A stretch of 62,966 nt of DNA, filler included, from Octopus bimaculoides (taxonomy: Eukaryota): NCBI RefSeq assembly GCF_001194135.2. It is 5 parts of 5 records of this genome, joined end to end, with 100 filler letters (N's around TTAATTAATTAA, not from the genome) between each part and the next. Parts side by side here need not be neighbours in the genome. Positions count along the whole stretch, not along the records: positions 5,756 to 28,617 come from NC_068993.1; positions 28,718 to 31,815 come from NC_068985.1; positions 31,916 to 40,036 come from NC_068982.1; positions 40,137 to 62,966 come from NC_068983.1; 1 more part is not named here. One strand, 5' to 3'. Below, piece by piece: positions 6,070-51,911 of the stretch; the first letter of the stretch is position 1, and each line of letters starts with the position of its first letter. Made by a program: the position numbers and the translations under genes. The notes beneath the pieces are model-generated. The model ran no database searches, was not told the DNA's origin, and saw nothing but the letters and a program-made list of their open reading frames with translations.

Positions 6070-6452
6070 ATATAAACTACAAAATGTGAAGAGGAATGGC
6101 AGGTGAATATATTTATTTAGCCACTTGACATCCTTGGGATTACCATAGTTACGTATCTTTCTTCATGTAATAATAATTTCAGTATATAATAAATTATAGA
6201 GTTGAACCGTTGGTATAACTATGATGTCTTGGTGATCTGATGAGGTAGCTTTCTTTGTTTGCATTGATTTTAGAATATACAATTGCATTGTATAATGCGT
6301 AGCGTGTACATTAATGTAGAATTGTAAAAATTAAATATCATACACTGAAATTATCATTACATAAAAAAAGGCTGCGAAACGGCCGTAATCCTGAGGATAA
6401 CAAGTGATTAAATATATTCACGTCTCATACCTCCTTACGTTTTATAATTTAC
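6070..6452. mobile_element. Fold-back element containing a hammerhead ribozyme motif
   Basis: Left arm ~6070-6192 is an imperfect reverse complement of right arm ~6333-6452 (gtgaatatattta..cacttg..atcct.(g/a)ggattac...atgtaat.ataatttcagt.tat.ata). Confidence 0.75.
6234..6390 (+). ncRNA. Type I hammerhead ribozyme motif (minimal Penelope-type)
   Basis: GAT-CTGATGA(6237-6243)-G-GTAGCTTT...AAAGGCTGC-GAAAC(6376-6380)-GGCC-GTA-ATC: intact core, palindromic stem III loop, 3-bp stem I, ~120-nt stem II insert. Confidence 0.7.
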
Positions 6453-6699
6453 GTATGTGTGTGTGTCTGTGTGTGTGTGTGTGTGTGTGTGTGTGTGTGT
6501 GTGTGTGTGTGTGTGTGTGTGTGTATGTGTGTGTGTATGTGTGTGTGTATGTGTGTGTTTATGTGTGTGTTTATGTGTGTGTGTGTGTGTGTGTGTCCGA
6601 GAAAGAAGATTCTGCAATTTCTTGCTAAATAACGTGCATAAACGCTTTGATCAATTGTAATCAAATGCCTGTGCTATGCGTTAATCTCTCTGTCATCAG

Positions 6700-6866
6700 A
6701 TCCACGTTGTACCACACGTCAGATATCGAAGTAATTGCAGAGCAACATCGGAGGAAGAGTACAACGCACCGAGACCACAATGTCGCGATAGCGCATGCAC
6801 CCCTAACCACTTGGCCATATACCATATATGAGGAAACAAATACCTCGCGGAATCAGACAAATGAAA
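6700..6866 (+). CDS. Candidate exon B of the unidentified host gene (..STLYHTSDIEVIAEQHRRKSTTHRDHNVAIAHAPLTTWPYTIYEETNTSRNQTNE..)
   Basis: Acceptor ctctctgtcatcAG, strong donor GAAA|GTAAGT at 6867, 167-nt open frame, phase 2 to phase 1, GC higher than the flanks. Confidence 0.55.
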
Positions 6867-7010
6867 GTAAGTGCCTGAAAAGCGTAGAATTGTAAATCAA
6901 AGCAAAAAAGCAATTATCAAAGAAAGGTACAGGGGAGCCCAAACCGCCAATAAAAGGAATAGAAGAGAAATTGATGCTTCGAGCGATACCTTTTTATTCA
7001 AGAGAAGAAC

Positions 7011-7210
7011 CGTTAGCACGCCGGGCAAAATGCTTAGCGGCATTTCGTTCGTCTTTACGCTTTGAATTCAAATCCTGCCGAGGTCGACTTTGCCTTTCAT
7101 CCTTTCTGGGTCGATAAAATAAGTATCAGTTGAACAATAGGGTCGGTGTAATTGACTTTAACACCGCCCACCCCTGAACACGCTGGCCGGGATCCAAAAT
7201 TTGAAACCAT
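7011..7210 (+). mobile_element. SINE family B
   Basis: gttagcacgccgggcaaaatgcttagcggc...ttcaaatcctgccgaggtcgactttgcctttcatccttt..ggtcgataaaataagta. Confidence 0.85.
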
Positions 7211-49489: not shown

Positions 49490-49620
49490 CACCACCACTG
49501 CTTATCAACCAGTATTAGTTTGTTTACATCCTCGTTACTTAACCAATTCGTTAAGAGACCAATTGAATAAGAATCAAGCTTTACAAAAATAAGTACTGGG
49601 GTCGACTTGTTCGACTAATT
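49490..49620 (+). mobile_element. SINE family A internal fragment
   Basis: gtttacatcctcgttactta.c.a.ttcg...aataagtactggggtcgacttgttcgactaa. Confidence 0.6.
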
Positions 49621-50339
49621 AGATACACACACACACGCATACACACACACACACACACACACACACATACACACACATATACACTCAGGCAAATCCTTCG
49701 GCTCCGAATAAAGAGGAGGTAGATGGAAACAATGGAGACAGCTGTCGGAAAGACGGCTTCTGCTTTTGGTTGGTTCATTTGGTGGAGTGGACCAAACGCC
49801 TTATTCTACATCACCACTTTATCTTGGACGTCTTCAACGCAATATATTCTCTTACATGCGTTCGGAGTCGGAGCTAGGTTTGAGAAAATCTTCCCACCTT
49901 CGCCACAGCCCCACCACGCTTAGAAACACTTGTAGAAAACATTATATGAGTTCCTTCTTCTCTGATTAAATTCTTGAGGAAGAAACAAACGAAGCTTGAA
50001 CGGATTTGAAACCTGCACCTAAAAATATATGACTAGATCCTGTATGCTATCTGCACTTGTATACCCAGTACTCTGTAATAGTAGTCGATCCAATCATCTT
50101 CACCACTCAGAAATATTGAAGAAATTTTGATTGATTAGTGAGAATAGATTTAATATTCTATTTGTTCCAGAATTCTTTGAGACATATCTTTATTTATTTG
50201 TTTCTTTATTTATCTATTTTAACTTTCTAATCAAATATCGATAGGTATTACACAGGTGAATTGAAAATTATCGTTTTAGATATCTAAATGATATTTACCA
50301 CGGTACTGCACACTAAACTACACTATTTTTTGTTGTCAT

Positions 50340-50468
50340 TGTGTGTGTGTGTGTGTGTGTGTGTGTGTGTGTGTGTGTGTGTGTGTGTGTGTGTGTGTGT
50401 GTGTGTGTGTGTGTGTGTGTGTGTGTGTGTGTGTGTGTGTGTGTGTGTTTGTGTGTGTGTGTGTGTGT
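50340..50468. repeat. (TG)n microsatellite
   Basis: Direct run. Confidence 0.95.
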
Positions 50469-51425
50469 ATTCGTTCTTTTGCCCTCATTTCCTTCTTTTT
50501 GTCTAATTTCCTTGAATTTTTTTAAACATTTATTTTCTATAAAGATGCACTGTGAAAGATAGAAATATGCAATTTCATACTTTTGCACATTGTATCTGGA
50601 AATTACTTATAACAACTACAAAAAATACAATCGTAATAAGTTTCGAATCGTGTCAGATAGAAAAGCTGAAAATTACAGACAGGTAAGAAGACAAAGATAA
50701 GAGAAGTATTTTTTATATTTCTTTGTATATGCCAACATCATAATTATTATTCTAAAACGAACTAATATCTGTTTCCAGCCAACGTTTTATGAATTTGATG
50801 AAAGATGTTTCTATGCAGTTTTTGTTTTTATATCGTCTTTAGATAGCTTTCATATACGATTAAGAAAATGGCGGAGAACATCTATCCTGCCAAGTTTACC
50901 CTTGGGAAATGCGTTAGATATATAGTATAGAACGATTTCCTATATAACATTGAGTAAGTTATAGCTGTGCTTGACGAATAAATTGTATATCTTACATTAC
51001 TGGGAGCTGTATAGATATCTGCAAAAGCCGATTTTGACATAACAGCTCACCAAGATTTGACAAGTAACAAAAGTATACTGGAGTCGATCGGATATACAAT
51101 AAAGAAGAATTAAGAGAGAGAGAGAGAGAGAGAGAGAGAGAGAGAGAGAGAGAGAGAGAGAGAGAGAGAGAGAGAGAGAGGGAGGGAGGAATAAATCCGT
51201 GTAAAATAAAACTGATCCATTCAACTGATTAATAATGATTTCCATTATTGGTACAAGGCTACAAATATATAAGGAATGCGTATAATATAATCGGCTGAGT
51301 CTACTTCGCTATATAGGATTTACTTATTTATCAAAGAGTGAATGGTATGTTGAGGTATATTCACACAGATATATATATATATATATATATATTTAGTTAT
51401 ATTAATAGTAATAATAAAAAAGAGT

Positions 51426-51911
51426 ATGGAGACTTTTACATCCACAAAGTTTATTTTATAGTTATATACAGCATATTATAATGGCCTACATGTGTTTCCG
51501 CTGCAGAAACTACTCACTGGTGCAAATGCAGCCTTGCAATATTGTCGGTGCAGCTTCATAAGGGCCCGTCCATTTGGTCATTCTTCAGTATACTAGTTTA
51601 GATAAATTTAATACAACCTTACAATATTGTCTTTGCAGCTTCATCAGGAACCGTTCACTTGGTTATCCTCGTAGTAAACTGATTGAAGTAGAATTTTGTT
51701 AGTGTTCCACTAACGAACAAACAAAAGCTTACATCAATCAGTTCACTTCAAAGATGACCAAATGGACGGACCCTGATGAAGCTGCACCAACAATATTGCA
51801 AGGTTGTATTTACTATAGTGAATAGCTGTTTCAGCAGGAACACGTGTGGACCATTATAATATGACGTATATAATTATAAAATAAATTTTGTGGATGTACA
51901 AGTCTCCATAT
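51426..51911. mobile_element. Fold-back element with three hammerhead copies (arm, partial direct copy, inverted arm)
   Basis: tatggagactt.tacatccacaaa...gcagcttcat.aggg.ccgtccatttggtcat at 51426-51582 and inverted at ~51752-51911; partial copy at ~51612-51670. Confidence 0.85.
51768..51852 (+). ncRNA. Type I hammerhead motif (decayed), with sister copies at 51483-51567 (-) and ~51620-51650 (-)
   Basis: + copy: GGACC-CTGATGA-AGCTGCA...cagcag-GAAC-ACGT-GT-GGACC. - copy: GGGCC-CTTATGA-AGCTGCA...TGCAGC-G-GAAAC-ACAT-GTA-GGCC. Their consensus rebuilds a complete core. Confidence 0.7.

Follow-up and report, generated by a model that had tools for sequence, protein, structure and literature searches.

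Penelope-like elements (PLEs) are the closest described systems for the DNA considered here. Their insertions most frequently show a head-to-head polarity, a one-sided 31-bp tail has been described, and so has mobilization in trans by pseudo-LTRs (pLTRs) (Arkhipova 2013, PMC3846280). The inverted plan, the one-sided tail, a bias toward microsatellites and non-autonomous derivatives of PLEs also appear in a later study (Craig 2021, PMC8557442), while internal start sites of the reverse transcriptase (RT) produce the tail of the anole PLE, which inserts in vitro without cleavage (Frangieh et al. 2024, PMC11167929). Minimal hammerhead ribozymes have been reported as pairs lying on opposite strands 100-700 bp apart, some with palindromic helix III variants, single motifs being interpreted as probable truncated PLEs (Cervera and de la Pena 2014, PMC4209133). 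PLE hammerheads can be dimeric (Lunse et al., via PMC6765202). Finally, tandem retrozymes have been tied to pLTRs, and animal retrozymes have been proposed to be PLE derivatives (Li, Clavereau and Pollet 2026, bioRxiv 10.64898/2026.07.22.740005).

We analyzed a stretch of 62,966 nucleotides from Octopus bimaculoides (the window), in which a first reading based on the sequence alone had singled out four palindromic elements carrying hammerhead motifs (E1-E4), plus a fifth motif (E5) next to a Penelope coding relic. We propose, with a probability of roughly three in four, that E1-E4 are old, decaying insertions of PLE 3' ends (pLTRs) from four families, written as head-to-head pairs by the element's own enzymes. 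The combination of an inverted truncated copy, a tail and minimal hammerheads on opposite strands is the published Penelope pattern, and neither that of miniature inverted-repeat transposable elements (MITEs) nor that of tandem retrozymes. E1-E4 reveal no new mechanism.

Hammerhead motifs in four fold-backs

The window is AT-rich (GC 34.7%, 5,443 N), with abundant microsatellites and dispersed repeats. Self-comparison recovered E1-E4 (Table 1) at coordinates nearly identical to those of the sequence-only reading and agreed with its view that the four sequences are mutually unrelated, as no cross-similarity was found beyond short AT-rich matches. Fold-backs occupy about 8% of the non-N bases (20% with the widest census). 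About nine are true local fold-backs, four of which contain a hammerhead motif; descriptor matches were absent from at least five more (1979-2257, 4190-4518, 4749-4954, 15733-16208 and 25953-26829). The notion of a class of fold-backs that all bear hammerheads thus stands for E1-E4 and fails for these others. The density of about one element per 12 kb is an estimate from one window.

Table 1. Positions of the fold-backs, hammerhead motifs and Penelope relic (arm identities from self-comparison; C3 and N17, core positions; z, z-score of the helix II fold).
Feature	Position	Strand	Description
E1 fold-back	6073-6451		Head-to-head: inverted 3' stub 6073-6191 (-) and sense stub ~6192-6451 (+); ends 4 nt from (TG)n; arms 74% alike over 120 nt
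E1 type I hammerhead	6234-6390	+	Intact: CUGAUGA, C3=6237; GAAA, 6376; stem III CGGCCG; UA; N17=6387; stem I 3 bp; unpaired base before helix II; helix II domain 132 nt, closed rod, z -0.9 (weak)
E2 fold-back	10583-10882		Head-to-head; one end 2 nt from (TA)n; arms 83-88% alike
E2 degenerate hammerhead	10618-10701	-	UUGAAGA (U at position 3), C3=10698; N17=10621; G-U at helix II base; helix II span 59 nt
E3 fold-back	14423-15602		Arms 82% alike over 1130 columns
E3 unit A	~14937-14423	-	
E3 best hammerhead	14597-14653	-	Intact: CUGAAGA, C3=14647; GAAA; stem III UCGA; UC; N17=14603; stem I 6 bp; C-A mismatch, then 28-nt helix II, closed rod, z -3.4
E3 hammerhead fragment	15015-14934	-	
E3 unit B	15016-~15511	+	
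E3 start of next unit	15505-15602	+	~98 nt, at (TG)n
E3 defective hammerhead copy	15013	-	
E3 defective hammerhead copy	15305	+	
E5 hammerhead	37387-37452	+	Outside any fold-back; core intact, C3=37391; N17=37448; stem III decayed; stem I 4 bp; helix II 39 nt, closed rod, z -2.1
Neptune-clade PLE relic	37488-37874	+	5'-truncated; C..RC..C linker and GIY-YIG, one internal stop
E4 fold-back with tail	51398-51913		Head-to-head: left stub (-) with ~25-nt AT-rich tail at (TA)n, right stub (+) tail-less; 51422-51913 by self-comparison, arms 84% alike over 160 nt
E4 left-arm hammerhead	51483-51566	-	CUUAUGA (U for G5), C3=51562; N17=51487; helix II span 57 nt, closed rod, z -0.7 (weak)
E4 inner half-hammerhead copy	C3=51647	-	
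E4 right-arm hammerhead copy	51773	+	CUGAUGA intact, GGAA, N17=G; does not form helix II

Each of E1-E4 displays the layout stem I / CUGANGA / stem II / GAAA / short palindromic stem III / UH, as had been claimed, and does so above the level of shuffled sequence; the CUGANGA box is altered in E2 and E4, however, and the motifs are not minimal as first described, since stem II spans 28-132 nt. With a strict type I descriptor, the window gave no perfect-core match and two one-mismatch matches, to be compared with five matches in 25 shuffles, which is not significant alone. A later version tolerates a helix II base that is bulged or mismatched and assigns a score to the stems: only four window matches scored at least 6, and they were exactly E1, E3, E4 and E2 (15.0, 14.0, 12.0 and 8.0, respectively). 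In 200 block-wise dinucleotide shuffles, the mean number of matches scoring 8 or above was 0.245 (maximum 2, none reaching four), and no shuffle yielded a match at 12 or above, a score attained by three window motifs. The chance that all four matches fall inside fold-backs, calculated by area, is 4e-5 to 2e-3.

E5 was missed by this final descriptor and found only with a loose one; the loosest version does not discriminate, as it gave 11 chance matches (6 sense, 5 antisense) in 219 kb of the reference loci described below. Rfam produced no hammerhead among the best 150 of 322 window matches nor in scans of E3 and E4, all of these scans yielding only microRNA-like hairpin noise. A type II hammerhead near CTGAAGA at 10520 was rejected by eye (four extra bases, no helix II).

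Three of the five motifs retain an intact type I core (E1, E5 and, in E3, the copy at 14647). Stem III is perfect in E1 and E3, has one mismatch in E2 and in the left arm of E4, and in E5 two of its three pairs are non-Watson-Crick. From established hammerhead chemistry, both E4 copies would be inactive. In E1, 10 of the 11 basal pairs of helix II form within its own strand, and 10 of 11 also form against the version of the inverted arm. In E2, the inner rod of helix II (z -2.9) competes with the basal helix, and the whole 78-81-nt hammerhead is missing from the (+) arm; the deletion is clean, crosses stem I, is bounded by short TTG repeats (10843-10846 compared to 10621-10701) and may reflect a polymerase jump across the folded ribozyme.

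When whole elements were folded, the hammerhead bases captured by the opposite arm numbered 36 of 45 (E3), 63 of 76 (E4), 53 of 151 (E1) and 1 of 78 (E2); in this folding model, the fold-back is predicted to bury the ribozyme core in two of the four elements. The fold-back does not create stems I and II, because both pair within one arm or spacer.

Insertion architecture, copy depth and the Penelope relic

In all four elements the polarity is head-to-head, with the 3' ends outward, and the elements end 64 (E1), 38 (E2), 180 (E3) and 65 nt (E4; 89 nt with the tail) past the cut site. One end of each lies at most 11 nt from a microsatellite (positions within 15 nt of one account for 3.6% of the total). 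A one-sided tail is present in E4 (~25 nt) and E3 (~98 nt), none being evident in E1 and E2. E3 and E4 also share a plan, i.e. a full copy, an inner partial copy on the same strand and a full copy on the opposite strand. In E3, a 9-nt motif marks the unit boundary four times, which defines monomers of 489 and 496 nt; these boundaries are ~170-180 nt from the ribozyme cleavage site and do not coincide with it. No remnant of an open reading frame (ORF) was found in the 290 nt before the E3 ribozyme and, judging from its sequence, E3 is the only one of the four with the appearance of a true ORF-less unit (~490 nt).

This architecture resembles that of endonuclease-positive (EN+) PLE insertions (PMC3846280, PMC8557442, PMC11167929) in its head-to-head inverted, 5'-truncated copy, its tail at one end, its microsatellite neighbourhood and its microhomology deletions; it differs in that no ORF lies between the repeats, no 8-10-bp target-site duplication (TSD) is seen and the E3 extension measures ~98 nt instead of 30-40. 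The ribozyme motifs likewise share with the metazoan pLTR hammerheads (PMC4209133) the type I topology, a short stem I, an unpaired base before helix II (E1), a small palindromic stem III, a high diversity within one genome, opposite-strand pairs a few hundred bases apart and a mostly ORF-less context. In contrast to the 7-8-bp helices described there, the helix II domain measures 28-132 nt here; in addition, the copies are degenerate and the helix II base of E3 and E4 is a mismatch rather than G-C.

Public reads were examined for E4, in 4 of the 24 listed runs and in three species; summed contig depth, the quantity used below, is not a copy number. In run X6, the depth of the E4 arms was ~100-400 times that of the single-copy flank and that of the centre ~2-16 times (17,736 at 51446-86, 77 at 51610-50 and 42 in the flank), and the arms were similarly raised in organisms B and C. 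Depth collapses within ~50 nt upstream of the core and dips at 51815-55, the most changed part of the window copy. A 5' truncation gradient among copies is thus present in the E4 family, the sole family examined. Some family contigs (42, 26 and 57) run past 51910 into the AT-rich tail, which the window copy carries on its left arm only, a one-sidedness also seen in PMC8557442 (Fig. 2) and PMC11167929. Truncation points vary, because some contigs extend upstream, by a median of 163 nt beyond the left-arm break. Joints between opposite strands also vary (51451/51878, 51483/51579 and 51490/51776, among the 15 of 172 joints listed), and another fold-back of the family has a centre of 267 nt compared to 140 nt.

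At 51838, the majority letter of the E4 family is A (492 of 568 depth in X6), which restores GAAA. Contig pieces from the three species span the left arm from end to end with 0-2 gaps, which makes the 57-nt helix II a trait of the family. A single 454-nt contig of organism B, a related species, contains the entire E4 with 25 differences, and the flank shows 30 in ~400 (P=0.26); as the difference rate of E4 is no lower than that of the flank, the insertion is old and drifting. We considered a compensatory change in stem I but abandoned it, as the differences listed (40 of 173) did not include the family letter of the 5' strand. In RNA run X21 (one cDNA library, 6% read), 54 E4 reads were recovered from both strands, none of them at least 99% alike to the window locus. 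No pile of read ends was found at the cut site in this run (a weak test), the sole start pile being at 51472, 14 nt away, and no RNA editing signal was seen in the E4 reads, whose change types resemble those of the DNA runs. A look-up of RNA records containing the E4 stretch listed none, which carries no evidential weight.

Immediately to the right of E4 lies a high-copy repeat (51914-52060), to which several contigs in three species join the end of E4; four RNA reads connect a stretch resembling it to the intact CUGAUGA of an E4-like copy. This repeat may belong to a related pLTR family.

The sequence-only reading had placed the fifth motif just 5' of a Penelope GIY-YIG relic, and this proved correct: E5 lies 40 nt before the relic, with a short (AT)n in between. 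The relic is 58-59% identical to three RT and GIY-YIG proteins of 698-729 aa, and its relatives number 1,642 at a threshold of E 0.001; its match to Pfam PF01541 (E 0.0013) is below the cut-off, and its C..RC..C linker marks the Neptune/Nematis type (PMC8557442). No relatives of the relic were found in prokaryote genomes or viral contigs, where the short E3 and E4 motifs had no matches either. The 3' untranslated region of the relic reaches an assembly gap at 38075; just before this gap, it contains two 72-nt tandem copies (88% alike, 37895-38074).

Origin of the fold-backs

An insertion of the kind proposed would begin with a Neptune-type RT/GIY-YIG protein, like that of the 37.5-kb relic, nicking DNA at, or next to, a (TA)n or (TG)n tract. 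From a fixed point located 38-180 nt beyond the ribozyme cut site, the PLE RNA would be copied over 100-600 nt before synthesis halts; the inverted arm would result from priming a second time in the reverse orientation, and the one-sided tail from the use of another start site. Such a hairpin would be an insertion scar rather than a mobile unit, with a ribozyme likely under selection in the source elements and drifting in the copies. E1, E2 and E4 could be plain truncations of coding elements, and E3 would likely stem from an ORF-less unit of ~490 nt mobilized in trans. Because the hammerheads of each pair sit on opposite strands, they cannot dimerize on one RNA.

For comparison, we collected PLE loci of animal DNA from metagenome contigs (the best 80 of 100), 77 of which have at least 100 nt downstream; most are distant from the relic (26-48% identity). 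A sense hammerhead core with helix II is found 80-890 nt after the ORF in 46 of the 77, and an antisense one in none. Helix II spans 10-16 nt in these 46 loci (median 12), as found by a search that favoured spans of 25 nt or less where one existed. One reference locus (L080) has the same C-A helix II base as E3, and the closest one (L001) shares a GAAAUCGAU stretch. Another (L057) contains an inverted repeat at 4233-4959, downstream of its hammerhead. Eight Naiad half-cores 35-50 nt apart are mentioned in PMC8557442.

Several observations weigh against a PLE origin. Helix II exceeds the reference range in all five window motifs (28, 39, 57, 59 and 132 nt), and an earlier version of the descriptor found no match in the 80 reference loci, which it missed because their stem III region differs. 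E1-E4 show no real DNA match to these 80 loci, and tblastn with 154 proteins detected no coding remnant in them, its only hits being the 37.5-kb relic and a marginal match at 7.5 kb (E 0.034). The final descriptor was loosened post hoc, with the motifs already seen, and reads were examined for one of the four elements. The adjacency to microsatellites is unspecific, since the same holds, at a distance of up to 27 nt, for the ends of three of four control fold-backs, and an 8-10-bp target duplication was not found at E1-E4, whose ends merge into microsatellites and whose longest shared flank words are 3-5 nt.

Among the alternatives, the one that survives best, although we consider it unlikely, is that all four are dedicated retrozyme-like families, i.e. 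short non-coding RNAs cut by dimeric hammerheads, perhaps circularized, and retrotransposed by PLE enzymes. The E3 monomer, in which the 3' end continues into its own start and no ORF remnant precedes the ribozyme, would fit such families, as would the collapse of E4 depth just upstream of the core, which a short unit would give, and the proposed descent of animal retrozymes from PLEs. However, two complete tandem units with complete ribozymes, the criterion of the 2026 preprint, are present in none of the elements (E3 amounts to one unit plus 98 nt, the others to less), the unit boundaries of E3 are away from the cleavage site, the truncation points of E4 vary, the X21 reads show neither a near-identical copy nor a start pile at the cut site, and the anole PLE dispenses with cleavage in vitro. 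Like animal non-LTR retrozymes (Cervera and de la Pena 2020, PMC7229834, and the 2026 preprint), the elements are non-coding, have a type I hammerhead and a link to PLEs, and E3 combines a monomer with a partial head-to-tail unit; retrozymes, by contrast, are tandem units of 220-400 nt with a ribozyme in each and circular RNAs, whereas the arrangement here is inverted, with at most 1.2 tandem units and no RNA product seen. The earlier idea that dedicated RNA elements, non-autonomous or retrozyme-like, form a new class here was not upheld, as the pattern is already published, two complete tandem units are lacking and an ORF-less unit is at hand only in E3.

MITEs are non-autonomous DNA transposons with terminal inverted repeats (TIRs), and it is very improbable that E1-E4 are PLE hairpin scars, or pLTR capturers, that now move in this way, their arms serving as TIRs for a TA-targeting transposase. 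Their short, non-coding, high-copy nature, inverted arms of 40-500 nt and AT-rich ends compatible with a TA duplication do recall MITEs, and the window does contain a true TIR element (4190-4518, arms 96% alike). Yet E1-E4 have unequal ends, asymmetric centres, inner partial copies (E3 and E4), no defined TSD and a ribozyme motif, and the E4 family shows a polar depth, variable inversion points and a second fold-back with a longer centre. The sequence-only reading had favoured Penelope over a DNA transposon and had named consistent transposon-type TSDs, with a match to a transposase-bearing partner, among the observations that would speak against this choice: no duplication longer than 5 nt was found at E1-E4, while the TIR element has one of 9 bp, and the polarity of all four, the unequal ends, the tail and the 3'-biased depth and variable joints of E4 agree with that choice. 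The same evidence supports its warning that such elements risk being mis-annotated as MITEs or DNA transposons.

Finally, it is hardly credible that the motifs are chance matches of a tuned descriptor in unrelated palindromes, a view favoured by the post hoc tuning, the Rfam result, the many chance matches of loose descriptors and the weak helix II z-scores of E1 and E4, because three motifs score 12-15 when no shuffle reached 12, all four are inside fold-backs, stems I and II form inside a single arm or spacer, and the family letters of E4 restore GAAA.

If E1-E4 are indeed PLE insertions, a broader proposal can be made tentatively, as a possibility less probable than not: several independent Penelope families of this animal lineage would have evolved an enlarged helix II, as all five motifs suggest, so that tens of thousands of motifs would escape Rfam and standard descriptors; the E3 family, at least, would consist of an ORF-less 490-nt unit delimited by RT start sites and not by cleavage; and the head-to-head stubs would provide long double-stranded RNA at high density. 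Among the papers listed when looking for earlier octopus work or for a long helix II, none describes these elements, the supplements of PMC4209133 and PMC8557442, which may contain such variants, apart. Should the long helix II hold genome-wide, the limit set on loop II in hammerhead descriptors would have to be widened, and this variant would offer a simple test of what PLE ribozymes need for cleavage. For repeat annotation, short fold-backs in such genomes can be scars of Penelope retro-insertion, not DNA MITEs, and PLE content is therefore likely undercounted.

Other repeats of the window

The TIR element at 4190-4518, which served as a control, starts with GGTAC, contains CCCTAA-like internal tandem repeats and lacks a hammerhead. 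It looks Merlin- or Mutator-like; a literature look-up on the Merlin motif listed no paper. The nearly perfect 206-nt palindrome at 4749-4954, also without hammerhead, has TAGGGT-like internal repeats akin to those of this element. The fold-back at 15733-16208 (81% over 122 nt) adjoins a (TG)n, and a 92-nt segment of its left arm matches the end of E4 at 67% (E 0.015); on this resemblance, it may be a more decayed PLE stub. The one at 25953-26829 has long arms (~190 nt, 76%) and an AT-rich centre, lies near a (TA)n and is devoid of hammerhead. Degenerate hammerhead cores were sought in these last two fold-backs and not found.

Two frames, 48429-48842 (-) and 40505-40957 (+), resemble, by their motifs, C-terminal pieces of non-LTR retrotransposon proteins; Pfam gave nothing above the cut-off. 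Two dispersed families of ~200 nt, numerous in the window, resemble short interspersed nuclear elements: the first is found at 5413-5613, 31542-31739, 43025-43222, 56298-56506 and 62356-62576, and the second at 7003-7206, 11091-11252, 12398-12629 and 53793-54013.

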